Shown here: in pieces, positions 35,111 to 62,593 of the stretch
How positions within the stretch are numbered: the first letter of the stretch is position 1
Layout: each line of letters opens with the position of its first letter
Assembly: GCA_963653505.1 (NCBI GenBank)
Contig: CAVJWL010000002.1
Span: 2,638-66,637, forward strand
Direction: 5' to 3'
DNA: 64,000 nucleotides
Origin: an uncultured Prevotellaceae bacterium
GTDB lineage: Bacteria > Bacillota_I > Bacilli_A > RFN20 > CAG-288
The notes under the pieces: generated by a model
Database searches by the model: none
The model's input: only the letters and a program-made list of their open reading frames with translations
Told to the model about the DNA's origin: nothing
Translations under genes and position numbers: made by a program

Positions 35111-35159
35111 CTCAAAACATGCAGTTTTTAGCTTGTTTTTTCATTGATATAGCCAAATT

Positions 35160-36175: not shown

Positions 36176-37043
36176 TTAAAAATTCCACTATATTTATTTT
36201 TGAAACATCCAAATTATTCAAAGCATTGAACACACTATTAACAAAATTATAAATTGCATTGATTAGAATTGTTGTCTTACCATTGCAAGATATTTCCATA
36301 TTCAATACATTAGCCAATTGTTTTTTATATTCGAATTTTGTAATCATATTCTTAACAATCATATAATCAACAAATGGTCTAAATGGTTCCATCAAATCAC
36401 AACCAAAATTAAACGGATTTTCACTCCCAATATGATGAATTCCTAATGAAGGAAGATACCCAGCACATGACACCTCTCTATTCACAGCAGAAAGTAATAT
36501 TGAATACCCATAATCTAAATAGGTATTGATTTCTTCACTTCCTTTTCTTCTATCAAAATTAGAACCAAATATAGAAGCAAAATATGTTTTAGCAGCTAAT
36601 CCTTCTCTATTTGTAGTATCACCTAATTCAACTTCATTTTCATATTTTGCTAAAATGGCACAAGCATCTAATTCTTCTTTACAAGCTAGAACAAAATGCT
36701 GATTGTGAATTTTTTGTTTGATGATATTAGTCCATACCATATCTTTAGCTTCTTTTATCCAACTGATTTGTGTTTTAATTCTTTCATAAGTATTATAAGC
36801 ACCATGCTGAGGAACTAATTCTGAAAGAGGATTATGTTTTGCATCACAAAATATCACTCTAACTTTATGATTTATAAGCTCAGCAAGTAATGCAGAAGTA
36901 ATGCATACTTGCTGATTTTCAATAATCAAAATAGAAATATCGTCTAATAAGATTCTCGATTCTTTATCGCTTCTACATACAAGATAATTTAGTTGAGTTT
37001 CAAGTTTACATCTATTACTAATTTTAACTATTCTAAATCCCAT
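36162..37043 (-). CDS. cas1: CRISPR-associated endonuclease Cas1
   Basis: 293 aa with a type II Cas1-like N-terminus (GFRIVKISNRCKLETQLNYLV...VRVIFCDAKHNP). It overlaps the cas9 stop. Confidence 0.9.
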   Translation of the reverse strand: MGFRIVKISNRCKLETQLNYLVCRSDKESRILLDDISILIIENQQVCITSALLAELINHKVRVIFCDAKHNPLSELVPQHGAYNTYERIKTQISWIKEAKDMVWTNIIKQKIHNQHFVLACKEELDACAILAKYENEVELGDTTNREGLAAKTYFASIFGSNFDRRKGSEEINTYLDYGYSILLSAVNREVSCAGYLPSLGIHHIGSENPFNFGCDLMEPFRPFVDYMIVKNMITKFEYKKQLANVLNMEISCNGKTTILINAIYNFVNSVFNALNNLDVSKINIVEFLNEQL

Positions 37044-37046
37044 AAA

Positions 37047-40000: not shown

Positions 40001-41480
40001 TAAAATCTTTATCCTTATCAGCTAAGAAAGAATAATATTTTGATTGATTTTGTAAAATTTGATGCATTTCAATCAAATTCAATTGATATGGCAAAACACC
40101 ATTTTCCTTTGAATTCTGCTTGAGTAAATATTTATTTGAGTCTATAGCATTTTTAATATCAATAAGCTTCTTTTTATCACCTTCAGCAAGAGGTACAAAA
40201 TCATCTTTCAAGCTTTGTTCTATTGGTAATATCTTTTTAATTTCTTTGTATAAAACTTCCTGATTAGTTGATTTTTCAACTCTTTCTACTCTCTTTCCAA
40301 CTTTGTTATAGCCTACATAATTTGCATAATTATTAAGTGTATTTTTACCATCAGTTAAGCATTTAAAGAACCTATTGTATTCATCTGGATTATATTTTTT
40401 AACTAATTCTTTTAATATTCTAAGTTGTTCTTTATGAGTATCATAAATTTCAACCATTGATTCTGAGATATATTTATTACCTTTTAAGAGATTTGCTAAA
40501 ATTCTCAAATCATTCAACTGTTTTAAAGATAAAATTATTTGCGTTCTAGCTTCACCAATAAGTGAAGAAACACTTGGTAAAACTTTAGTTTCAAATTCCT
40601 CAGAGGAAAAATCAATATCAATTTTTAACTCATCAGATTCTTCTAAATCAGAAAAGAGACTTGATACTTTAACTTTTTTTCCTAACATCAAATCGAAAGC
40701 TAGTTTCTTAAAGCTAGTTTTTTTGATACCATTAGCTTTGAAAATTTCAATTGTTTTGTCAAATAATTCACCAGATTTGTTTTCCTTTTTAAACAAATCA
40801 ATAAGTTGTTGTGCTTTTTCATTATCACAATTAAATGTTTCATATTTGACATTATCATCTTCTTGTTGCAAATCCTTAATAGAACCATTAATTGAATCAA
40901 AAATTCCAACTATAGTATCAGGATCATTACCAATTTTATCAATCTTACCTTCTTGAAGAAAATTACCTCTATATTTAATCATATGAGCTAACGCTAAATA
41001 TATTTCTCTAATGTCAAATTTATGTTCAGGATGTTCGAGCATTTCTTTTCTAAGATGATAAATAGTAGGATAATTTTTATAAAAATCACCATCCTTATAA
41101 TTATCATCATTAAATAATAGATTATCTTTTCTTAAAACCTCATCTCTATCTTCAAGATGAATCGCTGAATTATTAAGTCTATCAAAGAAATATGGATCAA
41201 CTTTATTCATTTCTTCTTTGAATAAATCTTGCAAAAGAACAATTCTCCATTTTCTTCTTTGAAGTCTTCTTCTATTTTCTCTAGCTGCTCTTCTTTCTGA
41301 AGCATCATTAGCACTATCAAAAAGTCTAGAACCCCAAAGATGGTTACCATAATATTTAACATTTGAACCATCATGTACTTCTCTATGTTTTTTTATGATG
41401 TTGTAATTTTGATCAGTCACACAAAAACCAACAGAATCAGTTCCGATATCTAATCCTAAATAATATTTTTTGTTTTCCAT
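37047..41480 (-). CDS. cas9: CRISPR-associated endonuclease Cas9 (type II-A), 1477 aa
   Basis: RuvC-I MENKKYYLGLDIGTDSVGF, arginine-rich bridge helix RRAARENRRRLQRRKWR, HNH DIDHIIPQAKVKDDSFINTVLVERSINNKKSD, RuvC-III HHAHDAYL. I place the start at ATG 41480, which is preceded by AAGGAG. The ORF-track start (41606) adds 42 spurious residues that overlap the tracrRNA candidate. Confidence 0.95.
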   Translation of the reverse strand: MENKKYYLGLDIGTDSVGFCVTDQNYNIIKKHREVHDGSNVKYYGNHLWGSRLFDSANDASERRAARENRRRLQRRKWRIVLLQDLFKEEMNKVDPYFFDRLNNSAIHLEDRDEVLRKDNLLFNDDNYKDGDFYKNYPTIYHLRKEMLEHPEHKFDIREIYLALAHMIKYRGNFLQEGKIDKIGNDPDTIVGIFDSINGSIKDLQQEDDNVKYETFNCDNEKAQQLIDLFKKENKSGELFDKTIEIFKANGIKKTSFKKLAFDLMLGKKVKVSSLFSDLEESDELKIDIDFSSEEFETKVLPSVSSLIGEARTQIILSLKQLNDLRILANLLKGNKYISESMVEIYDTHKEQLRILKELVKKYNPDEYNRFFKCLTDGKNTLNNYANYVGYNKVGKRVERVEKSTNQEVLYKEIKKILPIEQSLKDDFVPLAEGDKKKLIDIKNAIDSNKYLLKQNSKENGVLPYQLNLIEMHQILQNQSKYYSFLADKDKDFNNLDEYTYKIESILKFKIPYFVGPLTDKAKHSWIVRNDGHDEKITPWNFHDVINEDKTAEKFMENLKNCCTYLIDEPTLPKCSLLNQMFVLLNEINKWRLCVNGASDAQFISVEDKEYIIREVYLKNKPTLKTVKEAFKRKYGVKIDIFTGDSNDLKELSAADMHASLSSWIIMMNDAAFGESLLTDKSKQELADEIINEITTFENKELVQKRLKKHKLTPAQIKYLSNIKFEGWARLSRKLLNGLYVDKTNINTGEVIQLSIMDLMLQTNDNFMQILTTKNSDGSYKYSFMDQIEEEIGDLNTNMDDVIASTYTSPVMKRALYQTVKIVNELKEILKIDHFDSYFIESTREEREKKRSVSRKDLIVKTLKTAKNGLFEDIDLEHLKNEASLKQENDFRDKNKGKKMYLYFMQLGKSVYSGENIDLNNLQDYDIDHIIPQAKVKDDSFINTVLVERSINNKKSDNYPIKREIITKKAVNFIKALASKFPEFMPKEKINRILRSENKPLSADEISGFINRQLVTTNQSVKAVCDVLKKVDGEKSKIIYSKAGLVSEFRRVFNIPKSRDVNNFHHAHDAYLNVVVGNVFYKRFSNGNPNAIKYMMEHLEQTNVSVEHVFKHDQYILMSDTQIWKAKKYIDSKTGVMTYKGDVEDENSTGTIDLVRKYLSYNDPLVTHMLYEQVGDGGFFKATIHSANEGGASFPLKMEAPFNNPGFESKYGGYSDLSNPYVSLVKSDGKKGKHNYSIEFIPKVIRIGLGNDKKKLENYLVETRKLKNPEILIEKLLMETILEMPNKKGDCIKFTKLRIRGKSDGSIICVNNSELFMPIEYVKIIKKISKLLGKNNQAGKEKIDLSVLDKFGKDDIDCTRGKITREELIKLFDYITNVVYSKPDYNCLPALGNLFIKVKDAKEKFYNLSTKDCLIILSTMIDLLSCKSVQGRNLSLLGLPAKCGCIRTNQKLTLGTRIVQTSTTGFKEFVLFTVPED

Positions 41481-41507
41481 CTTGAAATATGCTCCTTTTG
41501 ATTGTAG

Positions 41508-41583
41508 AATAGACTTGTAAATCAACAATACAAGTTCAAGTAAACAATTGTCTAAATCCACACCTGCGTTGGCAGGTTTTTTT
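41508..41583 (+). ncRNA. candidate tracrRNA (anti-repeat + intrinsic terminator), divergent from cas9
   Basis: Plus-strand GACTTGTAAATCAACAATACAAGTTCAAGTAAACAATTGTCTAAATCCACACCTGCGTTGGCAGGTTTTTTT. AAATCAACAATAC is a perfect 13-nt complement to crRNA-repeat positions 9-21, and UCAAG pairs with repeat positions 2-6 with an SpCas9-like bulge. It ends in hairpin CCTGCgttgGCAGG plus T7. Confidence 0.55.
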
Positions 41584-41730
41584 ATTACACTATTATTATA
41601 AATCAAATTTATGCAATTTCTCCAAACTTTTATAGTTTAGTTCAAACTAGGCTAATAATTTTTTTCTAAAAAGTAACTTAAAATATTTTAAAAAAACATT
41701 TATAATTCAAAAACATTACGAGGTCATTTT

Positions 41731-44188: not shown

Positions 44189-46045
44189 ATGTTCACCAAA
44201 AAAATCGGACTTTATTTATTGAGTTTTACATTACCATTTATGATTGGTAGTTGTAATAGAAATAATGATACCAACGTAAATAAAAAATATGTAATAACCA
44301 TCGCCACCGATGAAGACATTCTAAGAAGCTCATCAACTTTTTTAAAGCAGTTTTCAACCAATCATCCAAACTACTCTCTCAATGTAAAAATCTACAATGA
44401 AGACTATCTTAAAAATTTGATCAAACATAATTCCGTTACAGAAGACATCTATTTAGTTGATGATTTATTGACCATCAATTTATCAAAAAATAATTTCGTA
44501 GATTACACCCTTAGTGAATCTTTTGGAAATTATTCTGGATATATCAAAAATTACATCAAAGCTGAAGATGAAAATATCTATTGCTTACCTGGAATTGGAT
44601 CAACATATTCTTACTGTTTAAATGTTGATTTATTTGAAACATGCAATCTTACAATTCCTTCAACAATCACCGAACTTAAAGACTTTGCTTCAAATAGTAA
44701 AAATTATGCAATTCCCTTTGGAACTTCTTTTTCAGATGAGAATTATTATTTAGATGCATTTTTCCAAATGACAATTCCGGGATTTTTCTCCAGTGTCAAA
44801 GGATCTAATCTCTTCAATGAATTTGTTAGCGGTAAAACTCAATTATCAACTTCATCATTAGCAACAACATTTGAAAATTATTTGAATAATATTTACCTTC
44901 TCACTTCAAATGAATTCTATGATGATTCAATAACATCAGAACAAAGCATTGAAAATTTCATCAATGGAAAACAATTCATACTTTCAATCAGTCCTAAATT
45001 CGATTTTGAAGAATATTATAAGAATAATAACTGTACCTTCAATTATGTCTATTATCCATTTTTAGGTTCAAAGAAAAACAATGGATGGATTTGTGCAAAG
45101 TCAAGTTTTTATTTAGCGACAAATAAAAACACCTATAAAAATAAAACTGAAGAAATCAATGAATTTGTAAAATATTATTCAAGCTTAGACGGACAACAAA
45201 AATTATTGATCGATGAATACGGAAATAAAAAGAATAATTATTTTTCATACCTATCAATGTTTGAAGCAAATGATGAGGAAAAAGATAAATACATAAAAGA
45301 GACTATTAAACAATCACATGTATATTTAGTCGACAAAATAGGTCCAACATTCGAAGAATCAGCCGAAAATATTGCTCAATATGCTAATGATGAAATTTCA
45401 ATTTCGACATTATTAGAAGATTTCGATTACAACAATCAAATCCAAATCAACTATAAAAATAATAAATATACAATCGAAGAATTGAAAAGATATTCAACAT
45501 CCTCAGAAGATGATTTAATCAATACCTTAAAAATCATCTCCTATTCAATCAAGAACAAACTATCTTTAGATACGATAATCATCGATGAAAGTTTTTTAAG
45601 ATATCCAATCCTAGATGGAACTATCTATGAAAGTGAATTGAACAGCATTTTCGATAACAAACTAGAAATGCAATATGTCAATATCAAAGGAAGTGAATTC
45701 AAAAAAATCATCGACTATAATGCAACTGTTAATGATAGTTTTTCAAAAAATGAAAGAGAAAGTTATGATATTCAGAAACTTTTCAATTTGTATGACAAAA
45801 TTTCTGTTAGAAATGTAAATCTTTCCTTTTTATCAAATGATAAATTTTTACTTTGCGGTGCTAGTTTTACAAGTGGAACACCAAAACAATACTTACTCGG
45901 AAACAAAAAGGAAATAGAAGACGATAAAACATATTATTTAGCTCTTCCTATCGAAATAATAGAGAGTAACCAATTTGAATTAGTAAAAGGAAATACATTC
46001 AATTTACTCGATGTATTTCTTGAATATTTGAGGTCAATAAGATGA
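44189..46045 (+). CDS. lipoprotein, unknown function
   Basis: 618 aa with a signal peptide and lipobox-like FMIGSC. Asn/Tyr-rich. 4-nt overlap with the downstream LRR gene. Confidence 0.45.
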   Translation: MFTKKIGLYLLSFTLPFMIGSCNRNNDTNVNKKYVITIATDEDILRSSSTFLKQFSTNHPNYSLNVKIYNEDYLKNLIKHNSVTEDIYLVDDLLTINLSKNNFVDYTLSESFGNYSGYIKNYIKAEDENIYCLPGIGSTYSYCLNVDLFETCNLTIPSTITELKDFASNSKNYAIPFGTSFSDENYYLDAFFQMTIPGFFSSVKGSNLFNEFVSGKTQLSTSSLATTFENYLNNIYLLTSNEFYDDSITSEQSIENFINGKQFILSISPKFDFEEYYKNNNCTFNYVYYPFLGSKKNNGWICAKSSFYLATNKNTYKNKTEEINEFVKYYSSLDGQQKLLIDEYGNKKNNYFSYLSMFEANDEEKDKYIKETIKQSHVYLVDKIGPTFEESAENIAQYANDEISISTLLEDFDYNNQIQINYKNNKYTIEELKRYSTSSEDDLINTLKIISYSIKNKLSLDTIIIDESFLRYPILDGTIYESELNSIFDNKLEMQYVNIKGSEFKKIIDYNATVNDSFSKNERESYDIQKLFNLYDKISVRNVNLSFLSNDKFLLCGASFTSGTPKQYLLGNKKEIEDDKTYYLALPIEIIESNQFELVKGNTFNLLDVFLEYLRSIR

Positions 46046-49000
46046 AGAATTTAACAAAGCTGATGACAATTATTTTATCGTTTTCTTTTCTACCTTTAAC
46101 TTCTTGTGAAAATAAAACGAATTCAAATAGTCAATCAATATCAAACCAAAAAATAACTGGTTATGAAATAATCAATCCCTTTAGCCAAGTATATGGAGTC
46201 GGTGAAATCATAGATTTCGATTCTATAACTTTTGAAATCAAAGATAATAATGGAAATATAACTACCATCAAAGGATTTGATAGCAGATTGAATATCGAAG
46301 GGGGCGATACAGAAAATGAAGGTAAACACACAATTAAAGTCATATACCTCAATTCAACTTATGAATTTGAATACACAGTAAAACAATTTTATGTCACTTT
46401 GAATTTCAATGGCGGAACATATGAAGGTAAGGAAGAAATCAAACTTCCTTTATACAATAAAACCTGTGATTTATCTAAGGTAATTCCAACCTATTCAAAC
46501 GAAGAAAATAAATACTTCAGCGGTTGGTTTTACAATATAGAAGCTACTGATAGAGTTACTCAATTCCAAGTTGAAAAAAACATCAAAAGCTCAACTGATA
46601 TTACAATCTATGCTGGTTATGATTTGAAGTATGATGACAAGTTCTATTACACAATCAACGAAAAAGAAAACACCTGTACCATTGTATCCATCAATTTTGA
46701 AACATATTTTGTGAATTATCTCTTCGATTCAGAATTAGTGATTCCTAAGACAATCGAAAGCTATCCAGTAACCGAAATTGGAGCTGATTTTTTCGTTCAA
46801 AAAACCATCAATGAAGATGGTACAGTCGAAGAATATGATTACGCCGATGTTATGATAGATTTGACAAAAATTTCCTTTGAAGAAGGATCTCAAGTAACAA
46901 AAATCGGAAATAGAGCATTCAGAGGACTCACATATCTAGAAGAAATAACTTTCCCAGAATCATTAGCCATCATCGGAGAAGAAGCTTTTAAAGAAACAAA
47001 TTTATCTGGAGAACTTATTTTAAATAAAAATCTTGTAAAAATCGGTAAAGGGGCTTTCAAATCTTTAAAATTAGAAAAAATATCCTTTGAAAAAGATAGC
47101 AAGATAAAAGTCATCGGTGAAGAATGCTTCAGTTATAACGAATTTTTATATTCAATCAAATTACCAGAAGGATTAGAAGAAATTAGAGAAAACGCCTTCT
47201 ATAAATGCGATGACTTATCAAGTATAAAATTGCCATCAACCCTCAAATACATTTCAGGATCTACCTTCATGTATATGGGAAGTTTAAATAAAATTGAAGT
47301 TGCTGAATCAAATCAAAATTTCACATCAATCGATGGTAACCTTTATTCAAAAGATAAACACAAATTGATCAGATATTGCTACACAAACGATGAAACTGAA
47401 TTCACAATTCCAAGTGAGGTCAATCAAATCTCTGATGCTGCTTTTGGTATTTTTGATGATTATAAAACATTAAAAAAGTTGAACATTCCCGAAGGAGTCC
47501 AATACATCGGCAATCAGGCATTTTCAGGATGCACATTCGATTTAAATCTTCCATCAACACTTGAGAGTTTTTCACTCGAAGCATTCTCAGGCTATGAAGG
47601 AAAAGAAATTAATGTCAGTACAGCCAATGAAAAATATCATTCAAAAGATGGCATCATCTATTCCCACGATTACAAAACTTTATATTTATGTCCAAAATCA
47701 TATGAAAAAAAGAATTTTGTCTTAGATGATAAAGTTGAAATCATTTCAAGAAACGCAATCTATGATTGTAAGAATATTGAAACTATCACCATATCTAAAA
47801 ATTCAGCATTGAAAAAGATATATACGAACGGATTATTATTCACAAATTTAGATAATTTAAAATTTGTTAAGATTGAAAAAAATGAACTTATCGATTTTTC
47901 GTTTGAATCATTTTTCAGTGCTACTAATGTCATCAACGAAAACTTCGAAGTAATCTTTAAAGATGAAACACATTATAATAACTTTTTAGCTAAACTCAAA
48001 TCCTTACCGCATCCAAAATATTATGATGATATCATCGACTTAGTTTATACCCACATAAATTTGGATTCTGAAGTCAAAGACAAATCTTTAACTTTAATTT
48101 CCAATGCAGTCGGCTTCACAGTAGATGAATTCAATTCTATTATCAATGAAAATTCCTTACTTGAAGTATTGAGTTTTGGAAGCGAAAATTCTAAAAATGC
48201 ATTATCATTAGTCTCTTATGTTTTAAAAGAAGATAAATATAATGAAGCAGAGAAGAAGTACGCTATAAATTTCCTAAAACGTATTTATTTTTCGATGTAT
48301 CTCAAAGCAAAAGAATCAACCTATAACATTTATTCAGCTTATGCAAATCTTAAAGCCTACTATGATAATTTTGATGCATCGATTCAAAAAGAAATAAAAG
48401 AATATTTAAACTTGATACGTGTGCTCTGCGACTTTGATAAAACCACTGAGATGAAGGAATCTATTTATCAAGAAATTTTAACCTTCCCACTTTCAAAAGA
48501 AAGCTTTGATACTGAAAAGTTCTTAGAATTGAAAAGTAAAGTTAATAAATACGAATTATTTAAAATTCCAGTTGCAAGTACTGTATATAATAGATACCAA
48601 CTTTTATATTGCAATTACAAAATTGCAAGTATAATAGATAAAAATCTAGAAGAATGTTCAGATTCAGAATTGCTCGATATCTATAATGTGATGTATAGCA
48701 CTGAAGATGATTTCATGAGTATCAGCGACTATTTAAACAGTCCCTATACTCAAACACCATATAGAAGCAAATATATTAATCGGCTTGAAGATTACAATAA
48801 TTTTATAAATAAATTCCAAACTGTAATATCTGATTTGATTGAGAAATATATCAATAAACTTGAGACCTTTGACTTCACAACTTTCAATTATGATACTTAC
48901 AACAATTTCTATTCAAACTATATCACAATAATCTACAAATACTGGTCAATATTCACTCCCCATTTCAAAAGCAACCAATATTTCTCAGTTTCTGATACAG

Positions 49001-49653
49001 AAAAGATAATCAATACAATCTGCACGAGTATCGATATCTATAATTTCAACAATAAGGATTTTACCAATATGAATGATAAAGAAATCATTCAAACCTACAA
49101 ATTATCTCAATCATTAGACCAAGTTATTTACAATAAATATGCAACCGATTATGGCTTCACCGATGATGAATATAATGTTCTCATCGATAATCTCTATGGA
49201 TTTAGTACTTATAATACAAAAAAAGACAACATTAAAACAAAATATCAACAAGTGATTCAAAAGATCGAAAACGAAATCAACAACGTTGAAATTTCTTCAT
49301 CATTATCACAAGAAATGGTCACTAATCTTTATAATCGCGTTACAATAATAGATAGTAATATAAATAAAATCACAGATTTCAGCCAAGACGCTAAACTGAA
49401 ATTCTGTTCAATTATGATTTACTACACCATTAAAAAAATCTTTGATACTTATCCAACAGTGACAAATGAGAACAAATACAGTATCAGACAAATGATATAT
49501 GGTTATTACAACATCAATGATTATACTTTCCGTATTGGAGCAAAAGGCTTCATTGATGAATTCTTGGATGGAACAATCGATGATACCTTTAACTACAACA
49601 CTACACTCATTCCAAATTACAGCCAATACGAAGAGTTATTAACAAAAATTTAG
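46042..49653 (+). CDS. BspA-type leucine-rich-repeat (LRR_5) surface lipoprotein
   Basis: 1203 aa with signal + lipobox LTSCEN. Repeated ~23-aa LRR units (IGNRAFRGLTYLEEITFPESLAIIGEEAFKETNLSGELIL...). Long C-terminal helical/Tyr-Asn-rich region. Confidence 0.7.
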   Translation: MKNLTKLMTIILSFSFLPLTSCENKTNSNSQSISNQKITGYEIINPFSQVYGVGEIIDFDSITFEIKDNNGNITTIKGFDSRLNIEGGDTENEGKHTIKVIYLNSTYEFEYTVKQFYVTLNFNGGTYEGKEEIKLPLYNKTCDLSKVIPTYSNEENKYFSGWFYNIEATDRVTQFQVEKNIKSSTDITIYAGYDLKYDDKFYYTINEKENTCTIVSINFETYFVNYLFDSELVIPKTIESYPVTEIGADFFVQKTINEDGTVEEYDYADVMIDLTKISFEEGSQVTKIGNRAFRGLTYLEEITFPESLAIIGEEAFKETNLSGELILNKNLVKIGKGAFKSLKLEKISFEKDSKIKVIGEECFSYNEFLYSIKLPEGLEEIRENAFYKCDDLSSIKLPSTLKYISGSTFMYMGSLNKIEVAESNQNFTSIDGNLYSKDKHKLIRYCYTNDETEFTIPSEVNQISDAAFGIFDDYKTLKKLNIPEGVQYIGNQAFSGCTFDLNLPSTLESFSLEAFSGYEGKEINVSTANEKYHSKDGIIYSHDYKTLYLCPKSYEKKNFVLDDKVEIISRNAIYDCKNIETITISKNSALKKIYTNGLLFTNLDNLKFVKIEKNELIDFSFESFFSATNVINENFEVIFKDETHYNNFLAKLKSLPHPKYYDDIIDLVYTHINLDSEVKDKSLTLISNAVGFTVDEFNSIINENSLLEVLSFGSENSKNALSLVSYVLKEDKYNEAEKKYAINFLKRIYFSMYLKAKESTYNIYSAYANLKAYYDNFDASIQKEIKEYLNLIRVLCDFDKTTEMKESIYQEILTFPLSKESFDTEKFLELKSKVNKYELFKIPVASTVYNRYQLLYCNYKIASIIDKNLEECSDSELLDIYNVMYSTEDDFMSISDYLNSPYTQTPYRSKYINRLEDYNNFINKFQTVISDLIEKYINKLETFDFTTFNYDTYNNFYSNYITIIYKYWSIFTPHFKSNQYFSVSDTEKIINTICTSIDIYNFNNKDFTNMNDKEIIQTYKLSQSLDQVIYNKYATDYGFTDDEYNVLIDNLYGFSTYNTKKDNIKTKYQQVIQKIENEINNVEISSSLSQEMVTNLYNRVTIIDSNINKITDFSQDAKLKFCSIMIYYTIKKIFDTYPTVTNENKYSIRQMIYGYYNINDYTFRIGAKGFIDEFLDGTIDDTFNYNTTLIPNYSQYEELLTKI

Positions 49654-53468: not shown

Positions 53469-53551
53469 TTTGGTAATTTTATATGTTTATATATTCAATA
53501 AAGTGATAAAATTTTGTTGCATAATATCTATAGAAAAATGGAGGACGAGCA

Positions 53552-56500
53552 ATGATCGACAAGGAATATATCAAAATAAATTTAGCAACAAGTAAAACCT
53601 TCTCTTATTTAGAGTATCATACCGACTCCATTATCAAAGTAAATAATCCAAATGTATATTATACCTCTTTTTCGTTTGTTCAAAAAATCGAAATCGACAA
53701 TCAAACTGAAAACGATTATCAAGATTTGATAATCCATTTTGAGTTTTCAAACAATATATTTAAGAGTGAAGATTTCCATATCGGATTCACACCAAAAAGA
53801 AATAAATATCTGATAAAAATCGATCCAAAAATCAAGATAGATGACACAAGACTATATAACATCAACGGAATCTCATCTTGCACAATCTTTATCTCTTTAA
53901 GAGATCCAAACAATAACACTAAAGAATTGTGTTCAAATACAAAAACAATCAGCATCCTTCCATTCAATCAAGCGACTAATGACATCTATAAAGCACCTTT
54001 ATTATTTTCAAAATACTGCATCACAGATTTCTCACAAATAATAAATATCCAACATGCAGCCAATAATGAAAAAGCAAAATTGAATGGATTTGAAACAGAT
54101 TGTATAATCGGATATCAAAACGAAGATACAAACGAAATCATCAAAGAAGTAACTTCGATATATAGAGCCATCCATAACACTGGAAATATTACTTATTCAA
54201 ACCCACCGAATTCAAGTGAATTAGTTCAAAACATCAGAATGCCAAATACAGTTTTAAAAACCAAACTTGGAACTTGTTTAGACATATCATTGTTATTCTG
54301 TTCAGCCCTTCTTCAAGTCGGACTTCATCCGATATTGATTTTGACTCAAGGTCACGCCTTTGCTGGATGTTTTTTACATGACTATGATTCTTTCAACGGA
54401 TATTATGAAACGAATCCAAATGTCATCTTCTCCGATGCAGTAAGCCAAGAAAAAAACATCATTCTTTTTGAATGCACAACAGCCACAAATAATTCTTCAG
54501 TACCATTTTCTGAAGCAATGAAAATAGCAAATGAAACATTGAGAGCATATCGTGGATTCTTTATAGCTATTGATATCTATATGGCTCAACACTCCATCTT
54601 CAAACCTATTCCAATAGCAAATGATGATGGCAATGTCGATTTCACAATCCCAATGACTAAATTAAAAGAAGAAGAACTCGAAGAAATCGAAGAATATCAA
54701 GGAACCCCAATAGCCGAAGTAGATACAACTGATCGTTTCACAACTTGGGAAAAGAAATTATTAGATTTATCTACATCTAATAAATTGGTAAATTTCCGAT
54801 TTTCAAAAGATAATTCCAACCATTCAATAATCATCCCACCAAATGGAAAAGGAAAAGAAATCTTTGAGTTTTTAAAACACAAAGATGGAACCTTTACACT
54901 TTCAAATATCAAAAACGTATTGCAAGATAATGAAGGTAATATTGGAAATATTGAAAGTGAAATATTTGAAAAAGTAGCCTCAAATCAACTTCAAAAAGGA
55001 ACTCTTCTTATGACAGGAACTGTCAAAACAATGAAGAGCTTAATAAAAAAAGATAATGAATCAAGAGAAGAAACAGGCTCCCCAACCCTCTACTTATGCA
55101 TCGGTTTATTGACTGGAAACGATTCCAATGGAAGAAGCAATAAAGAAATTAAAGCCCCATTTTTATTACTGCCAATAAAAGTTAGCAAAAATAGATACGG
55201 AGATGATTTCACCGCTACCTATGACATTGAAGAAATGATGATAAATAAGACATTCTTCGAATACTATAAGATGAAAAAAGGCAGTGATTACGATAATCTC
55301 TACACCGTTTCATCCCACAACCAATTTGAAGACATCATCGCTTCATTAAAAGAGAATCACAGCGGTGATATAAAAGTCGATGAAAATGTTTGTTTCATCG
55401 CAAATTTCTTATTCACTCATATGGTAATGTGGCAAGATATCATCGATAGAAAAGAAGTCTTAAGAAAGAATGTCATCATCCAATCACTTTTGGAAAACAA
55501 ATCACTTATCAACGATGATAAAATCCAAGTAGACAATGTCGATGAATTAGATACGATGAAAGATTTTGCAGCACCATTACCTTATGATTCAACTCAACTG
55601 AGAGCGATAAGAGAATGTGCTAAAGGAAATTCGTTCATTCTAGATGGTCCTCCAGGAACTGGAAAAAGTCAAACGATTGTCAATATGATTGTCAACTCTT
55701 TCTATAATGGAAAGACAATACTTTTTGTTGCAGAAAAACAAGCCGCTCTTGAAGTAGTCAGACAAAGATTAGCAAGTTTAGGCTTAGATCAATTTGTCTT
55801 GCAACTATATTCATCAAAGACGAACAAGCAAGCTTTTTTCAGTCAACTATCCAAGGCGATGGATTATGGAAAAAGAAGCTCTGACGAAGATTTTTTAACA
55901 ATATGCGATAACATCGAAAAAGAAAAGAAAATCATAAACGATGAACTTAGAAGGTTACATTCACACAAAAAGCAATTCTATTCATTATATGAAGCAATAA
56001 CTAGAGAATTAGCAACTTCAGAAATAAAGCTGAATTTTGATATTTCACAAGAATTTTTAAGCGATTATAATTCTGAAAAAGATGTCAAAATCAGAAATAT
56101 CATTCATCGAATAGAAAAAGTGAACAGTGAATTCGATGGAGAAAAAATTGAAAACTATCTTTCAATTATCAATTTCAAAAGATACACATTCAATGACCAA
56201 AATACTCTAGTCACATCTTACACAAAGCTTTCTAAAAATTTAATTGAATTAAAAAATAAATTCGAACAACTAAAAGAAACTTTGAATGAACCAAGCTTAC
56301 AATTAAAAATCAACAATGTGGAATTCATCATCGGAATATTAAAACTATTGATTGAAAAAGAAGTCAAAATCGATTGTTTTTCAAAACCTGATTTAGAAAC
56401 ATATTTCAACAATATGAATGTTGTAATGCCTAAAATTTCAACACTTGCCAAATTAGAAAGTTCCATATCTAAAAAATACAATATCCACGGAATCGAACAA

Positions 56501-59383
56501 GTAAATGGAAGCCAAGTAAAAGAAACATTGAAGAAAGGAACCAACATCTTTAACAAAGGAAAAGCAAAAAAAGAAGCAATCAAATTGCTCTCTCCAATGC
56601 TTTTGAACACAAACGATATATCAAACGAAGAAATAAATGAGGCATGTGACATTGCAGATGAATACAATTCATTAAAATCTGAAATCATAAAAGATAAATT
56701 CAACATCGCTGCATTCTTTGGTGAATCTATCTTAGACTCTCTTTCAAACTTTGATACTTATTACGAGATTTATAACAACACCTATGAGCTCTATAAATTG
56801 ATTCTTCACGGGGATGAAAAAATATTCAATCGCTTATACACAGTAATAAAAGGTGCTTCCCCCTTTGCTCTTCCAAAAATAAAAGAAGCATATAAAGTCT
56901 TCAGTTCATCCCATAATAACTTCGAAGCCGAATTGAACAAAATCATTAAAGTTCACCCACTTGATTTATCGGCATTTGTTGAGCAAGATTTCATCGATAC
57001 ATATCAAGAAATATGTACATTATTCATCGATGAAGAAAATCAATACAAGATAAATCAATACACAAAATTATTATCTGACTATGAAGAATTAGAAGCCATC
57101 GGTCTTAAGGACTTAGTAACTTTAATTAAGAAAAAAAGCATACCATTAGGTGAACTAGAAAAGACATACGAACACAATCTATGCCACGCGTTTGTAATAA
57201 CATATTTTGTCACCGATGAAGAAAACAACGATTTCGATGCTAATACCTATGAAGAAGAAATTAATAAATACCAAGAGTTGATTAAAAAATACAATTCCTT
57301 ATGCGTAGGTGAAACCATTGAAAAAATCACTTCAAAATTTGAAGATCCAGAAATAAAAAGAAGTACATCAACTCCTATAGGAGCTTTAAGAAAAATCTGC
57401 ATGAGCTCCGGAAAAGGAATATCGATAAGAAATACTCTAAACAAATATGAAGATTTAATCAGAATGTATTTCCCATGTTTTTTGATGTCCCCACTTGCCG
57501 CCGCACAATATCTAGATGTCAACTCTAAAAAGTTCGATATTGTCATCTTTGATGAGGCTTCACAAATACCAACTTCAGAAGCAGTTGGACCAATTGCTAG
57601 AGGAAACTCTTTAATTGTAGCTGGTGATCCTCAACAGATGCCACCATCAGATTATTTCTCGGTCGGAAGTGAAACAGATGAAGAATCATTAGATGGATCT
57701 GAGACATTACTTGCAGATGCAGAATCTCTCTTAGATGATTGCATAGCTATAGATATGCCAAGAATCAGATTAGCATTCCATTACCGTTCAAAACACGAAT
57801 CACTGATAAGATTTTCAAATAGAAATTTCTATGGAGGCAACCTCTTCACCTTCCCATCAACTGATAATTTGACATCCCATGTATCTTTCATCCATGTAGA
57901 TAGTAAAACTAAGAAAAAAGGGAGTGAAATCTCAACTGAAGAAATTCAAACAATACTCGACGTATTAAAACAAATCCTTGAGAATCCACAAACAAAAAAT
58001 AAATCAATCGGAATAATTGTCTTCAATTCTTCTCAACAAGAAAAACTTGAAGATGAAGTGGATACATTCTTAAACAAGAATCCAGAATACATAAAATTAA
58101 CTCATTGGCAAGAAGAAGATTCCAATAAGAAATTATTTGTTAAGAATCTCGAAAATGTTCAAGGAGATGAAAGAGATATCATCATCATGTCAATCGGATT
58201 TATGAAAGGACATGATGGGAAAGCTCAAATTAACGGTCCACTAGCTTTAGCAAAAGGTGAAAGAAGATTGAATGTTGCTGCAAGTAGAAGTATCGAACAG
58301 ATGATTGTTGTTTCCACAATCTACTCAAGTGATATCGATGAAATAGGAAAGAAAAATCAAGGTTCTAAAAACTTAAAAGATTTCTTAAGGTTTGCTGAAA
58401 ATTCTGATAGATTCGTTTTAGATCAAAATGATGACTCACCAAACAAAGATTTAGCATATTTCATAGCTAAAGAATTGAAACAAAAAGGATATGAATGCGA
58501 TGTATCCGTAGGTTCAAGTGAATTCAAAGTGGATTTAGCAGTTAGAAAGAAAGATAAAAAAGAGTACATTCTCGGAATTCTCTTAGATGAAAAACCATTG
58601 AATGGAAATGTATCATGTAGAGATAGATTCTTCGTAGAACCGATAATCCTAAAAAATTTAAAATGGAAAGTATTGAGAATCTACACTGTTTTATTCCTAA
58701 GATATAAATCAAGAACCATCAAAAAAATAATCGAAATGATTGAAAGTGTAGGAAATGAAGAAATAGAAAATACAACTTTATATATCCCGCCAGTCATGAC
58801 AGAACATCATATTTCACAAAAAGATTTTGGAATAGTCCAATATAAAAAATTGAAATATGAAGTCCAACCATTAGGAGATGACTTCAATTTTGAAAAAGGA
58901 AGGTTCTATAATGAAATATTAGAATTTATCCAAAAGCTTATTGAACTAGAATATCCGATTTCAAGAGAACTAATATTTGAAAACATCAAAGCAAAATTTG
59001 GAATAACAAGATTGACACAAAAATTAGCTTATGTCATCCTAAATCACGTTCAAATGATTGATCCAATCAAAACAAATGATTTTGAAGGAAGAATCTTCTA
59101 TTGGCCAAAAGATAAAGAAATCAAAGTTGAAAATTTCAGAGAGTCAGAAAGAGATATACTAGATATCTCTAAAGAAGAAATCATCAGCTTGATGAATTCA
59201 ATCATAAAAATTTACAAATCAATCGATAAAGAAGAATTGATAAGAGTGACATCAGAACAGATGAATATATCAATAATCACTGCAAAAACAAGAAGAAAAT
59301 TAGAATATGTCATTCATGAAGCAAGTGAAAATGATTTATTAGAAAACGGATTTCACGAAAGCAATTATTTTCAAATGAATTAA
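53552..59383 (+). CDS. giant multidomain protein: N-terminal transglutaminase-like Cys-protease fold + DUF4011-like + Upf1/DNA2-like SF1 helicase (AAA_11/AAA_12) + PD-(D/E)xK (DUF559-like) + DUF3320-like C-terminus
   Basis: 1943 aa with a strong RBS GGAGG. Putative TGase core LGTCLDISLLFCSALLQVGL...GHAFAGCFLHD (Cys/His/Asp). Helicase motifs GPPGTGKSQT (I), FDEASQ (II), VAGDPQQMPP (III), GDERD, RRLNVAASRS (VI). Nuclease-like ECDVSVGSSEFKVDLAV. Confidence 0.85.
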   Translation: MIDKEYIKINLATSKTFSYLEYHTDSIIKVNNPNVYYTSFSFVQKIEIDNQTENDYQDLIIHFEFSNNIFKSEDFHIGFTPKRNKYLIKIDPKIKIDDTRLYNINGISSCTIFISLRDPNNNTKELCSNTKTISILPFNQATNDIYKAPLLFSKYCITDFSQIINIQHAANNEKAKLNGFETDCIIGYQNEDTNEIIKEVTSIYRAIHNTGNITYSNPPNSSELVQNIRMPNTVLKTKLGTCLDISLLFCSALLQVGLHPILILTQGHAFAGCFLHDYDSFNGYYETNPNVIFSDAVSQEKNIILFECTTATNNSSVPFSEAMKIANETLRAYRGFFIAIDIYMAQHSIFKPIPIANDDGNVDFTIPMTKLKEEELEEIEEYQGTPIAEVDTTDRFTTWEKKLLDLSTSNKLVNFRFSKDNSNHSIIIPPNGKGKEIFEFLKHKDGTFTLSNIKNVLQDNEGNIGNIESEIFEKVASNQLQKGTLLMTGTVKTMKSLIKKDNESREETGSPTLYLCIGLLTGNDSNGRSNKEIKAPFLLLPIKVSKNRYGDDFTATYDIEEMMINKTFFEYYKMKKGSDYDNLYTVSSHNQFEDIIASLKENHSGDIKVDENVCFIANFLFTHMVMWQDIIDRKEVLRKNVIIQSLLENKSLINDDKIQVDNVDELDTMKDFAAPLPYDSTQLRAIRECAKGNSFILDGPPGTGKSQTIVNMIVNSFYNGKTILFVAEKQAALEVVRQRLASLGLDQFVLQLYSSKTNKQAFFSQLSKAMDYGKRSSDEDFLTICDNIEKEKKIINDELRRLHSHKKQFYSLYEAITRELATSEIKLNFDISQEFLSDYNSEKDVKIRNIIHRIEKVNSEFDGEKIENYLSIINFKRYTFNDQNTLVTSYTKLSKNLIELKNKFEQLKETLNEPSLQLKINNVEFIIGILKLLIEKEVKIDCFSKPDLETYFNNMNVVMPKISTLAKLESSISKKYNIHGIEQVNGSQVKETLKKGTNIFNKGKAKKEAIKLLSPMLLNTNDISNEEINEACDIADEYNSLKSEIIKDKFNIAAFFGESILDSLSNFDTYYEIYNNTYELYKLILHGDEKIFNRLYTVIKGASPFALPKIKEAYKVFSSSHNNFEAELNKIIKVHPLDLSAFVEQDFIDTYQEICTLFIDEENQYKINQYTKLLSDYEELEAIGLKDLVTLIKKKSIPLGELEKTYEHNLCHAFVITYFVTDEENNDFDANTYEEEINKYQELIKKYNSLCVGETIEKITSKFEDPEIKRSTSTPIGALRKICMSSGKGISIRNTLNKYEDLIRMYFPCFLMSPLAAAQYLDVNSKKFDIVIFDEASQIPTSEAVGPIARGNSLIVAGDPQQMPPSDYFSVGSETDEESLDGSETLLADAESLLDDCIAIDMPRIRLAFHYRSKHESLIRFSNRNFYGGNLFTFPSTDNLTSHVSFIHVDSKTKKKGSEISTEEIQTILDVLKQILENPQTKNKSIGIIVFNSSQQEKLEDEVDTFLNKNPEYIKLTHWQEEDSNKKLFVKNLENVQGDERDIIIMSIGFMKGHDGKAQINGPLALAKGERRLNVAASRSIEQMIVVSTIYSSDIDEIGKKNQGSKNLKDFLRFAENSDRFVLDQNDDSPNKDLAYFIAKELKQKGYECDVSVGSSEFKVDLAVRKKDKKEYILGILLDEKPLNGNVSCRDRFFVEPIILKNLKWKVLRIYTVLFLRYKSRTIKKIIEMIESVGNEEIENTTLYIPPVMTEHHISQKDFGIVQYKKLKYEVQPLGDDFNFEKGRFYNEILEFIQKLIELEYPISRELIFENIKAKFGITRLTQKLAYVILNHVQMIDPIKTNDFEGRIFYWPKDKEIKVENFRESERDILDISKEEIISLMNSIIKIYKSIDKEELIRVTSEQMNISIITAKTRRKLEYVIHEASENDLLENGFHESNYFQMN

Positions 59384-59384
59384 T

Positions 59385-60617
59385 TCATTCAAAGCTAACC
59401 ACATTATTATCCACATTCCATTCAGGATCAAAATGGCTGATATCATTTCCTGAAAGAATGTGGATTTTTGCTTTGTTAGAATACCATAAAATAGAAGGAC
59501 CAACATTCTTAATAGATGCTGGAATATAAATATCAGTCAAAGAACCGCATAAAGAAAAAGCTTCTTCTTCAATAGAAACCACACAGCTTGGAATATTTAC
59601 AATTTTCAATTTCAAGCAACCAGAAAAAGCTCTCTTCTTGATAATCTTCAAAGAAGAAGGAAAACTGATAGATTTTAATGAAACACAATTTTTAAACATA
59701 GAATCCTCAATGCAATCAATGCCTTCATTTATAGTTAGGTTAGTTATCGTTTTATTTCCTAAAAAAGATTTCTTATCAAAACAAACAAGATATTTGATAC
59801 CTTTATATTCAATTTTATTATTTAAAACTAAATTGATTACATGATTTTCAATTCCAATAACAATAGCTTTGTCATCATCAATATGATAAACCACACCATC
59901 ATTTACAAAATTGATATCTTCTTCAATTACCACTTCGTTTGAAAAGATATCGGTCTCTACATTCTCTTCGACTTCTTCTTTGACATTTAAATCTTCATTT
60001 TCAACTAAAAAAGGAGAATAATCTAACTTCAAATCGAAAGAAGTCTTTGCTGAAGCAAAATCTTTTTCACTATAAGAATAATAAGGGGAAGAAAAAGAAT
60101 TCCTACCTTTTGGTGAAATATAAAGAGCATTGATTTTATAGGTGATTTCTTTTGAATCTAATTGTCTAGAAAACAGAGAATCACAATATTCCTTTTCAAT
60201 CTTCCTATATTTACTAGGCTTTATTTTTGTTTGTAAAATTACAGAATCAGGAGTTATTGATTTATTGATTGTTTCATTGAATAATTCTTTGTATCTATTG
60301 TAATAATAAACATTTTTCATTCTGATTGAAGCAACCCTTGAAAGTTCTGTTTTAAAATTTAAAAAGTATTTATCGGGCTTGAAATTTGTGACGCTAGCCC
60401 TAGTTTTAAAATGAATACAATCTGTAAATGTATGATTATAATCAATATTTATTTGCGGGAATTTATCATTCAATTCCTTCAACTTTTTTATCGTAATAGA
60501 TGTATTTAAAACTTTCTTTTTATTTTTTTTATTTTTAAAAACTACAAACAAGACTATTAATATAATTGTTAGAATTACTGAACCAATGATGACAATAGTA
60601 AACATTTTAAACTCCAT
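59385..60617 (-). CDS. membrane-anchored BspA-type LRR protein
   Basis: 410 aa with an N-terminal TM anchor and C-terminal LRR_5-like repeats (SLKSISFPSSLKIIKKRAFSGCLKLKIVNIPSCVVSIEEEAFSLC). Convergent with the helicase gene (1-nt gap). Confidence 0.6.
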   Translation of the reverse strand: MEFKMFTIVIIGSVILTIILIVLFVVFKNKKNKKKVLNTSITIKKLKELNDKFPQINIDYNHTFTDCIHFKTRASVTNFKPDKYFLNFKTELSRVASIRMKNVYYYNRYKELFNETINKSITPDSVILQTKIKPSKYRKIEKEYCDSLFSRQLDSKEITYKINALYISPKGRNSFSSPYYSYSEKDFASAKTSFDLKLDYSPFLVENEDLNVKEEVEENVETDIFSNEVVIEEDINFVNDGVVYHIDDDKAIVIGIENHVINLVLNNKIEYKGIKYLVCFDKKSFLGNKTITNLTINEGIDCIEDSMFKNCVSLKSISFPSSLKIIKKRAFSGCLKLKIVNIPSCVVSIEEEAFSLCGSLTDIYIPASIKNVGPSILWYSNKAKIHILSGNDISHFDPEWNVDNNVVSFE

Positions 60618-60698: not shown

Positions 60699-61370
60699 AT
60701 GAGAAAAGAAATAGATATGACGACATATATAAAAAGAAACCAGTACAATTGGTTTAGAACATTCGATGATCCAACCTATGGTTTTGATGTTGATATCGAT
60801 GTTGATGAAGTTGTCAGATTAGCAAAAGAAAGACATCAGTCTTTTTTTCCTTATTTTTATTACATAATCTTAAGAGCAGTATCTAAGGTAGATGAAATGA
60901 GAATGAGAGAAGTTGGTGGAAAGGTATATTTATACGATGTTATCAATCCAACCTTCACAGTGATGACAGATTATGGAGTCTATCAAAACGCCGGAGTAGA
61001 AATGGATTGGAATTTTGACAATTTCTATAAAAAAATCCGTTCAATAATTGACGAAGTAAAAAAATTACCACCAAGTGATAATCTAGATAGATTTCCAGTT
61101 TGCTCACAACCGAATTGTTTATATACAACCTGCATACCGATACTTTCATTAAAAGGAATGAAACACCCAACACCAAGTAAGAATCACGATTCGCTATCTA
61201 TCCCTCGCATTTGTTTTGATAAATACGAATTAAAAACCGATAAAAGATATCATCTTACATTGAATATCACAGTTTCCCATACCTTAGTTGATGGTTTCCC
61301 CTTAGCAAGATGTTTCAATTACATCAAAGAAGATTGTTTGAAAGCAAGAGAAATATTCAAAAACAACTAG
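60699..61370 (+). CDS. chloramphenicol O-acetyltransferase (CAT) family protein
   Basis: 223 aa, CAT-like throughout. The C-terminal catalytic region VSHTLVDGFPLARCF aligns to the CAT HHAVCDGFHVGRF motif with the catalytic His conserved. Confidence 0.7.
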   Translation: MRKEIDMTTYIKRNQYNWFRTFDDPTYGFDVDIDVDEVVRLAKERHQSFFPYFYYIILRAVSKVDEMRMREVGGKVYLYDVINPTFTVMTDYGVYQNAGVEMDWNFDNFYKKIRSIIDEVKKLPPSDNLDRFPVCSQPNCLYTTCIPILSLKGMKHPTPSKNHDSLSIPRICFDKYELKTDKRYHLTLNITVSHTLVDGFPLARCFNYIKEDCLKAREIFKNN

Positions 61371-61417
61371 ACAAAATTTAATTTCATAATCCATCATTTG
61401 TGAAGGAGATAAAATAG

Positions 61418-62593
61418 ATGGAAAAAGAAATTTTCAAAGGATATAAATTTAGAATCTATCCAAATAAAAATCAAAGCAGTTATCTGACTAAAATAATAGA
61501 TAGTTATCGATTTTTCTATAATCAATCAGTAACAGAATTGAATGAATATAAAGAAAAAAATATCGTTCCTTCAAAAGAACAATTATTAGAACATTTAAAA
61601 ACAATAAAAATATCAAAAGAAATAATTGATCCAAAAACTATATCTTTTCTTTTAAAAGAGGCAGTTTTTAATTCTTTTAAAAATCACGAAAAAGCTCAAA
61701 AAGATAATAAAAATATAAAATTTAAATCAAAATACAATAAAAATACAATTTCACTATTCGTTAAACAAATAAATTTTGAATTGAATTTTGAAAACAAAAC
61801 TATAAATCTATTCAATTTAAAAAGAATCAAAACAAGAGGTCTACAAGAAAACATTCATCCACAAAATAGAATATACATAACAAAAACATTAGATGAAAAA
61901 TATTTTATTTCATTTAATTGTAAAACAACTTATAAAATATTGGCACCACCAAAAGAGAAAAAAAGAATAGGCATCGATTTAGGATTAAATTCACTGATAA
62001 CTACAAGTGAAGGGAAAACAATTCTAAATGAAAGAATACTAGGAAGAATGCAAAATAGAATCTCAAATCTCCATAGGAAAATGTCGAGAGAGAAAAAAGG
62101 TTCAAGGAATTATGTAAAGACAAAAATAGCCTTACAAAGAGCATATGAAAAAGTAACAAATATAAGGAATGATTATCTAAATAAAATATCCTATAGAATT
62201 ATCAAAGAAAACACCTTTATAGGAATTGAAGACTTAGATATAAAAGCTATGGAAAAACGGCATCAAATATCAAAATCACTGATGGATGCATGTTTAGGAA
62301 TTATAGTCAAAGATTTAGAATATAAAGCATCATGGAATAATAGAGTTCTTGTAAAAGTGGATAGATATTTCCCATCTAGTCAAATATGTTCACATTGTGG
62401 ATATAAAAATAAAAAAGTAAAAGATTTATCCATAAGAGAATGGACATGTGAAAAATGTAATACCCATCATAATAGAGATGAAAATGCTGCAAAAAATATT
62501 TTAAAAGAAGCCTACAAAATAGGATTAGCAAATATAGGAATAAATAATGTTAGGATACAGAAAATAATAGATAATTTATTTTCTAATTATTGA
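61418..62593 (+). CDS. tnpB: IS200/IS605-family TnpB (OrfB) RNA-guided endonuclease
   Basis: 391 aa with RuvC-like motifs (IGIDLGL; IGIEDLDIK; NRDENAAKNI) and zinc finger CSHCGYKN...CEKCNTHHNRD. No tnpA is adjacent. Confidence 0.85.
   Translation: MEKEIFKGYKFRIYPNKNQSSYLTKIIDSYRFFYNQSVTELNEYKEKNIVPSKEQLLEHLKTIKISKEIIDPKTISFLLKEAVFNSFKNHEKAQKDNKNIKFKSKYNKNTISLFVKQINFELNFENKTINLFNLKRIKTRGLQENIHPQNRIYITKTLDEKYFISFNCKTTYKILAPPKEKKRIGIDLGLNSLITTSEGKTILNERILGRMQNRISNLHRKMSREKKGSRNYVKTKIALQRAYEKVTNIRNDYLNKISYRIIKENTFIGIEDLDIKAMEKRHQISKSLMDACLGIIVKDLEYKASWNNRVLVKVDRYFPSSQICSHCGYKNKKVKDLSIREWTCEKCNTHHNRDENAAKNILKEAYKIGLANIGINNVRIQKIIDNLFSNY

Follow-up and report, generated by a model that had tools for sequence, protein, structure and literature searches.

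One-gene defence systems such as Nhi combine a superfamily 1 (SF1) helicase and a nuclease in a single polypeptide. Hhe, which Gao et al. are said to have described in 2020, is reportedly another anti-phage helicase-nuclease encoded by a single gene. Two further profile models matter for this work: the PADLOC model PDC-S37 (PDLC05009) and the NCBIfam (release 20) equivalog model NF058533.1, which is named 'anti-phage protein ProA' and has 1903 positions and a curated cut-off of 1500 bits. Here we compare these systems with a large gene from an uncultured, low-GC Bacillota bacterium, which is found in a 64,000-nucleotide stretch of the metagenomic contig CAVJWL010000002.1 (hereafter the window). 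The open reading frame (ORF) lies at positions 53552..59383 of the forward strand, runs from ATG to TAA and encodes 1943 amino acids; a ribosome-binding site, GGAGG, can be read directly from the sequence at 53540..53544, 7 nucleotides before the ATG at 53552. The ORF is matched by both the NCBIfam ProA and the PADLOC PDC-S37 profiles, and we consider it reasonably likely that the gene encodes a helicase-nuclease of the single-polypeptide ProA family, of which it would be a divergent representative in Bacillota.

The match to the ProA model covers nearly the whole protein, with profile positions 7-1901 of 1903 aligning in one stretch to residues 38-1906. For comparison, a tblastn search found WP_064360768.1, a protein of 1963 residues carried by IncF plasmids of Klebsiella, Raoultella and Enterobacter. 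This protein scores 2225 bits on NF058533.1 and, since that passes the 1500-bit cut-off, we treat it as a bona fide ProA. The N-termini of the two proteins are homologous (BLASTP E 8e-29) and have the motifs Q-x-I-R-x-P, TCLD, GHAFAG, FE-T and AID in common. The proteins are near-equal in length and collinear throughout: a beta-sandwich, a transglutaminase-like module, DUF4011, a split SF1B helicase, an MTES_1575 nuclease and a DUF3320 tail. They differ in their hosts and surroundings. ProA is found in Proteobacteria, whereas the window protein comes from Bacillota; the window gene is chromosomal and syntenic, whereas the Klebsiella ProA gene is plasmid-borne and stands alone between IS110 and IS5 transposases, i.e. 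it is flanked by insertion sequences (IS). In addition, the window gene is paired with a gene for a transmembrane (TM) leucine-rich repeat (LRR) protein, which the Klebsiella locus is without. A comparison of the Klebsiella ProA DNA with E. coli genomes gave no match. The exact window protein has no entry among the records searched, and the genome-contig matches listed are relatives with at most 39% identity.

The domains follow each other along the forward strand. An N-terminal, Ig-like beta-sandwich with an invariant Asn50 (residues 1-140, 53552..53971) is followed by a transglutaminase/papain-like core (residues ~160-355, 54029..54616), whose candidate active-site residues are Gln226, Arg229, Cys242, Asp244, His268, Glu307 and Asp341. 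DUF4011 (Pfam PF13195, E 3.7e-19) occupies residues 402-570 (54755..55261). The first RecA-like domain of the SF1 helicase (AAA_11, PF13086, E 1.5e-17) covers residues 678-861 (55583..56134) and includes the Walker A motif GPPGTGKS at residues 699-706. The helicase core is then interrupted by a long insertion (residues ~862-1300, 56135..57451) which has no Pfam domain and is poorly conserved in the alignment. It resumes with invariant alignment columns in the Walker B and motif III segment (residues 1322-1370, 57515..57661), with FDEASQ at 1333-1338 and GDPQQMPP at 1358-1365, and ends with the second RecA-like domain (AAA_12, PF13087, E 3.1e-20; residues 1392-1588, 57725..58315), with QGDERD at 1537-1542 and RRLNVAASR at 1571-1579. 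An MTES_1575 endonuclease domain, which is Vsr/DUF559-like and belongs to the PD-(D/E)xK superfamily (PF18741, E 1.7e-13), lies at residues 1638-1730 (58463..58741). The DUF3320-like C-terminal region spans residues ~1789-1906 (58916..59269), within both the ProA and PDC-S37 profiles. The Pfam match to DUF3320 itself (PF11784) is weak in the window protein, being confined to residues 1789-1824 with E 0.011, yet it is part of the precomputed annotation of many homologues. A sequence-only reading of the window had taken the C-terminal ~1550 residues for a DUF4011, SF1 helicase, nuclease and DUF3320 chassis; the Pfam and PADLOC matches show that this was correct.

Among the PADLOC models, those for PDC-S37 and Hhe match the window protein strongly. 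Positions 6-1541 of the 1550 in the PDC-S37 profile match residues 392-1932 (E 2e-240, 799.5 bits), so that the two have DUF4011, the helicase, the nuclease and the DUF3320 tail in common. The window protein has, in addition, a 390-residue module made of the beta-sandwich and the transglutaminase-like core, which the PDC-S37 profile and the short form of the family are without. A good example of the short form is the Vibrio protein P0058, which covers positions 360-1902 only of NF058533.1. The likeness to Hhe is more restricted. Positions 918-1694 of the NCBIfam model NF042953 match residues 964-1744 with 530 bits, against a cut-off of 2000 bits, and positions 1321-1780 of the PADLOC model PDLC02194 match residues 1268-1730 (E 6e-102). 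The similarity to Hhe thus comprises the latter half of the helicase together with the Vsr-like nuclease, while the N-terminal ~900 positions of its profile are unmatched and no transglutaminase-like module of Hhe aligns with the window protein. With a score below the cut-off and the N-terminal half of the profile unmatched, the window protein falls outside Hhe. Nhi probably differs from the window protein in domain order and nuclease type, and no Nhi model is among the PADLOC matches of the window protein at E values up to 1. Judged from these profile alignments, ProA is the long form of the DUF4011-helicase-nuclease-DUF3320 chassis represented by PDC-S37, and a cousin of Hhe. A preprint reports a phage inhibitor of Hhe (bioRxiv 10.1101/2024.04.14.589459).

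When 39 full-length homologues are aligned, the Walker A and Walker B motifs and motifs III, V and VI are invariant, and all are intact in the window protein. A search of the sequences in the PDB found the closest solved structures to be those of IGHMBP2 (3.5e-14), Sen1 (3.2e-13) and DNA2 (1.1e-7), as well as Upf1; no solved structure of a ProA-like family member was detectable by sequence in this search. Intact motifs together with similarity to Upf1, IGHMBP2, Sen1 and DNA2 place the protein among the SF1B, Upf1-like helicases. The nuclease match, at 50.9 bits, passes the Pfam cut-off of 38.2 bits. Among the acidic residues of this domain Asp1679 is found in all 39 homologues, Asp1691 in 97% or more of them and Asp1661 in 72% or more. 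The window protein has an intact SF1B (Upf1/IGHMBP2/DNA2-like) ATPase-helicase core and a Vsr/MTES_1575-type endonuclease with conserved acidic residues.

For the N-terminal module, residues 1-410 were modelled in AlphaFold2 with the aid of 38 homologues. The model is confident (mean pLDDT 90.3, pTM 0.86) and consists of a beta-sandwich (residues 1-140) and an alpha/beta domain (residues 160-355). Cys242 forms the N-terminus of a helix (242-255) and His268 the start of a strand (268-274), a papain-like arrangement. The same placement, a Cys that opens a helix and a His in the beta-hairpin after it, is found in transglutaminase/papain-like enzymes (PNGase, transglutaminase-like proteases such as 3isr and 3kd4, TglA and LapG) and in the inactive transglutaminase domain of Rad4/XPC. 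Animal transglutaminases also have a beta-sandwich before the core. The window protein differs from its transglutaminase-like relatives in a 28-residue insertion between the His strand and the next strand, and in its fusion to a helicase-nuclease, which none of those relatives has. The Pfam Transglut_core match in the window protein (residues 194-258, E 0.011, 16 bits) is under the 23-bit cut-off; Transglut_core scores of 16.4-18.9 bits are likewise below this gathering score, and 10-11 of 34 N-termini taken from across the family give weak, independent matches to Transglut_core or DUF553. Together with the model, the conservation of the Cys-His pair makes the assignment sound: the N-terminus of the window protein has a transglutaminase/papain-like fold in which the Cys-His pair is conserved. 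The sequence-only reading had proposed a transglutaminase-like core on the strength of two motifs recognized by eye, GTCLDISLLFCSALLQVGL (which contains Cys242) and GHAFAGCFLHD (which contains His268). Both are present in the translated ORF, and the proposal is now borne out by the predicted fold and the conservation.

Is the domain likely to be an enzyme? Cys242 and His268 are each kept in 54 of 57 closer homologues, and both are kept in 28 of the 34 N-terminal domains, which come from many phyla. In the remaining six, among them a 47%-identical relative (P0013, locus L086), Cys and His are gone together, as are Gln226, Arg229 and Glu307. Since these five residues vanish as a set, they are probably under active-site selection in most members. 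Such co-loss speaks for an active cysteine enzyme in most of the family, the window protein included, and for the existence of inactive derivatives. The third catalytic residue could be either Glu307, which disappears with the Cys and His, or Asp341, which is invariant. The joint loss of Cys, His, Gln, Arg and Glu is seen at loci L010, L013, L050, L064, L003 and L086, where, e.g., ATPLE replaces GTCLD. At three of these loci (L010, L013 and L064) the sizes of the downstream ORFs match a comEC-holA pair that recurs in the neighbour scan described below. This suggests that the subset without Cys and His consists of vertically inherited ProA-like proteins with a catalytically dead N-terminal domain.

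Another possibility is that the transglutaminase-like domain is non-catalytic, a DNA- or protein-binding module like that of Rad4/XPC which positions the helicase-nuclease. The six members without Cys and His (P0013 included) retain the domain, and because they do so the fold is expected to have some function that is independent of catalysis. Asp341, Tyr188 and Pro352 also remain unvarying in all 34 domains, including the forms that lack Cys and His. However, the 28 other members, with the window protein among them, keep Cys, His, Gln226, Arg229 and Glu307, and these residues are lost as a set. We therefore regard a purely non-catalytic domain as rather unlikely, and prefer a cysteine enzyme with occasional inactive derivatives.

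A fusion of this kind had been put forward in the sequence-only reading as a plausible undescribed system. The fusion is real but not new. A phmmer search with the N-terminal 392 residues against 1.84 billion cluster representatives found 2537 proteins at E <=1e-3, of which 964 reach E <=1e-10. The module is nearly always joined to a DUF4011 helicase. Among the N-terminal-module matches listed, 90 of the 136 representatives checked are at least 1700 residues long. We also considered the possibility that the module occurs in other architectures, and rejected it: the short matches are mostly truncated ProA-like genes, as is evident from the start of DUF4011 or the Walker A motif that follows the module. 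Given these cluster counts and lengths, the beta-sandwich and transglutaminase-like module is a hallmark of one large family that has already been modelled. NF058533 describes the architecture with the N-terminal module included and the bona fide Klebsiella ProA has the module too, so the claim of novelty is unsupported.

What might such a protein do? We propose that it surveys intracellular nucleic acid, with DUF4011 and the helicase core loading onto foreign DNA, e.g. phage or plasmid ends, or onto replication intermediates. Membership of the Upf1-like SF1B family suggests that ATP-driven translocation would proceed 5′-3′, and what is known of Vsr and PD-(D/E)xK enzymes suggests that the C-terminal endonuclease would then cut. 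The N-terminal cysteine enzyme could provide a second catalytic or regulatory activity, as a protease, deamidase, isopeptidase or cross-linker, whose target may be a protein of the phage, or else the enzyme itself, so that the nuclease is triggered or licensed. Whichever of these applies, the N-terminal domain is probably not a passive scaffold. Most likely the gene constitutes a one-gene system, which also appears to be the case for the IS-flanked ProA of Klebsiella.

Homology to families that are labelled anti-phage supports a putative defence role for the window protein. Several points weigh against this reading, and we gather them here. The score of the window protein on NF058533.1, 1211 bits, is under the 1500-bit equivalog cut-off (its relatives P0013, P0032 and P0043 score 1099-1317 bits), and its identity to WP_064360768.1 is only ~26%. 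The paper that introduced the name ProA was not found in the literature searched, and we have therefore taken the anti-phage label from NCBIfam only. In the candidate papers 'ProA' turned out to be proaerolysin, or part of the word 'proactively', rather than the antiphage protein. PDC-S37 is, we assume, a candidate proposed on the basis of defence-island association rather than a validated system. In the mechanism outlined above the substrate, polarity, trigger and transglutaminase-like chemistry are all inferred. The remaining points come from the genomic context. The order of genes around the window gene is identical in a metagenomic strain with a 97%-identical protein. It is also largely recognizable in a relative with a 74%-identical orthologue, where GNAT, CysK and SAT genes lie upstream, followed by an FMN (flavin mononucleotide) reductase, the ProA-like gene, the LRR gene, a CAT-family acetyltransferase, TnpB and an NMN (nicotinamide mononucleotide) transporter. 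As the region is syntenic in this relative, the locus is not obviously accessory. We also scanned the flanks of 34 diverse homologues, two genes to either side and 136 proteins in total. Most belong to housekeeping families and only ~10 of the 136 are defence-like, while ComEC (five times) and DNA polymerase III delta (four times) recur as a comEC-holA pair in one Clostridia subclade. In addition, a DUF4011 gene of P. aeruginosa is reported to be a core gene that flanks a defence hotspot, and not part of its cargo (PMC10250203).

These observations raise the possibility that the protein is a vertically inherited housekeeping enzyme, a DNA2/Upf1-like helicase-nuclease for repair or RNA surveillance that has no dedicated immune role. 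The syntenic position among relatives with 74-97% identical orthologues, the normal composition of the gene, the housekeeping neighbours of the 34 homologues, the fixed position beside comEC-holA in Clostridia and the core status of the P. aeruginosa gene would all be expected of such an enzyme. The closest solved helicases, IGHMBP2, Sen1, DNA2 and Upf1, are also eukaryotic maintenance enzymes. That said, NCBI curators name the full-length family anti-phage, and there are strong matches to two PADLOC defence models. The family has a patchy distribution over the phyla, is abundant on plasmids and is found beside IS elements, some copies adjoin Wadjet, Pycsar, reverse-transcriptase or bSEFIR genes, one copy is carried by a putative phage-labelled contig, and no conserved operon ties the family to repair genes. 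On balance a housekeeping role seems quite improbable to us, and membership of the ProA family, with a putative role in defence, remains our preferred reading.

The homologues themselves are found in very diverse contexts. Members of a 40%-identical clade (L088 and L089) follow immediately downstream of a complete Wadjet JetABCD system and SbcCD, and other, distinct loci contain an ABC transporter, feoAB, or a DUF3427 helicase with a NUDIX gene. A homologue in Bacteroides adjoins rpsA and a reverse transcriptase, and those on large proteobacterial replicons adjoin type VI secretion system or c-di-GMP genes. The defence-like neighbours in the 34-homologue scan include a Pycsar cyclase, a reverse transcriptase, bSEFIR, mad3, a UvrD/GajB-like protein and HEC-01A. 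Because these matches are scattered among housekeeping genes, we no longer treat guilt by association as strong evidence. The sequence-only reading had placed the gene in an accessory region. This argument, like that from a defence island, is weak for a gene with a GC content of ~31-33%, against 30% for the window and thus no compositional anomaly, in a syntenic backbone and with homologues whose neighbours are mostly housekeeping genes. The locus is not a clear defence island, although a type II CRISPR-Cas locus at a distance of 12 kb counts in favour of defence; taken as a whole, the surroundings leave an immune role neither proven nor excluded. The case for defence therefore rests on homology to the named families rather than on context. 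The neighbours that had been listed, i.e. LRR_5 proteins, a GGDEF-EAL protein, an FMN reductase, CAT and TnpB, are indeed there, but the adjacent LRR protein had been described as a surface protein and is predicted to face the cytoplasm instead.

ProA-like proteins are encoded on 579 plasmid records, where 15 matches cover at least 80% of the query. One record labelled as a plasmid, 'plasmid 29' of Bacteroides finegoldii (L094), has a reverse-transcriptase-family gene at 13555-14685 that is convergent with the ProA-like gene, the two stops being 1 nucleotide apart. Given rpsA and glutamine synthetase genes, this record may be a fragment of the chromosome that has been labelled as a plasmid. 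A further copy was found in a phage collection, on an 11.4-kb human-faecal contig described as 'Bacteriophage sp.' (MT836269.1, 6168-10820), which encodes a ProA-like protein with 34% identity over residues 188-1730. This is either a mis-binned contig or a phage-borne gene.

The neighbour that most deserves attention is the convergent LRR gene, which encodes 410 residues on the reverse strand at 59385..60617, with its stop codon 1 nucleotide from the stop of the ProA-like gene and no terminator between the two stops. Its product begins with a TM helix (residues 6-27), followed by KNKKNKKK, a conserved domain (residues 37-200), an E/K-rich linker and an LRR of the BspA/TpLRR type (residues ~245-410). 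In all the partners an N-terminus free of charged residues precedes a single TM helix, and a cluster of lysines and arginines comes after it. By the positive-inside rule, such a cluster after the TM helix predicts that the LRR is cytoplasmic. The conserved domain and the LRR of the partner are thus predicted to face the cytoplasm, an arrangement that is atypical of a surface protein.

Across the clade of 43-97% identical proteins, the LRR partner is found tail-to-tail with the ProA-like gene in seven of eight distinct contexts, with 3′ ends that abut or overlap by 8-25 nucleotides. All other neighbours vary across these contexts. The family of partners is small (13 clusters of full-length proteins) and restricted to this Bacillota clade. 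It also diverges about twice as fast as the ProA-like proteins: the partners are 88, 47, 48, 30, 25, 23 and 32% identical where the ProA-like proteins are 97, 74, 70, 48, 46, 46 and 45% identical. We looked for a ProA-like gene beside P0086, the most divergent of the partner homologues, whose contig stops 43 bp past it. One member of the clade, P0014, is without the partner and has a large serine recombinase downstream (L090, 12284-13813), which may mark an insertion that displaced it. The partner is also absent from the 40%-identical clade, and neither the 80 distant loci nor the Klebsiella ProA locus has it. In the 40%-identical clade the ProA-like genes at L088 (10001-16959) and L089 (10001-16962) overlap a convergent gene of 411 residues by 16 nucleotides. 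We considered whether this is a diverged LRR partner and rejected the idea, since its product resembles a DEDD (DnaQ-like) exonuclease; the layout is shared, but the protein is unrelated.

The pairing can be read either as a lineage-specific functional link, which we judge to be unlikely or slightly worse, or as a two-gene synteny block that has persisted. In the first case the two genes could form a module, in which the LRR protein is a sensor, adaptor or regulator of the ProA-like enzyme and the enzyme executes the response. The LRR might recognize a protein of the invader, or hold the enzyme at the membrane, the site of phage DNA entry. Such a module would account for a pair that is kept in seven of eight contexts, at 43-97% identity, while other neighbours change. 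It would also fit a small, clade-restricted partner family, a fast divergence that is typical of recognition components and an LRR placed by the positive-inside rule in the cytoplasm. However, the orientation is convergent and the genes are consequently not co-transcribed. The partner is missing from P0014, the 40%-identical clade, the 80 distant loci and the Klebsiella ProA. BspA-type LRR genes are common in these genomes, with a second one just 4 kb upstream, and within a narrow lineage chance may be enough to keep two neighbouring genes together. The topology, too, is predicted from the distribution of charge only. We consequently find the module doubtful, and quite unlikely in its fuller form, i.e. 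that ProA works as a two-gene system in the low-GC Bacillota clade, with a membrane-tethered, cytoplasmic LRR as the recognition or localization subunit and the transglutaminase-like enzyme transducing or executing the signal. If true, this would be an LRR-receptor-plus-effector arrangement that has not been described for ProA, Hhe or PDC-S37. A one-gene system is the reading that we prefer for the window gene.

If the window protein is active, the ProA family would reach beyond proteobacterial plasmids into the Bacillota of the gut and rumen. Otherwise this is an annotation-level result, in which an architecture was correctly recognized but had already been named. Two points are worth following. 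The first is the catalytic status of the N-terminal domain, which is the least understood part of the family and whose Cys-His pair, kept in most members and lost as part of a set in some, predicts an enzymatic step. The second is the clade-specific pairing with a fast-evolving, predicted cytoplasmic LRR protein, which could reveal a sensor subunit.

The window contains some further features. A type II CRISPR-Cas locus (34288-41606) lies 12 kb upstream of the ProA-like gene. PADLOC identified Cas9 (1519 residues, 37047-41606) and Cas1 (36162-37043) on the reverse strand, while the likely Cas2 (35852-36175) and likely Csn2 (35160-35855), on the same strand, are assigned from position and size only. 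The repeat array, with a period of 65-66 nucleotides, occupies ~34288-35111. An Rfam search of the window found nothing. Upstream of the GGDEF-EAL gene, at 44189-49653, an ORF of 618 residues overlaps by 4 nucleotides, and is translationally coupled with, the gene for a BspA-type LRR protein of 1203 residues. The 618-residue product is without a Pfam or PADLOC match. The relative with the 74%-identical orthologue lacks this block, which is hence where the locus varies.

Finally, the gene for the CAT-family acetyltransferase is followed by TnpB (OrfB_IS605), with no adjacent TnpA, in the window (60699-62593) and at loci L083 (17749-19638) and L093 (3757-5621). The pair is kept in related genomes, with TnpB split in L093, and the TnpB beside CAT may be a fixed, non-mobile copy.

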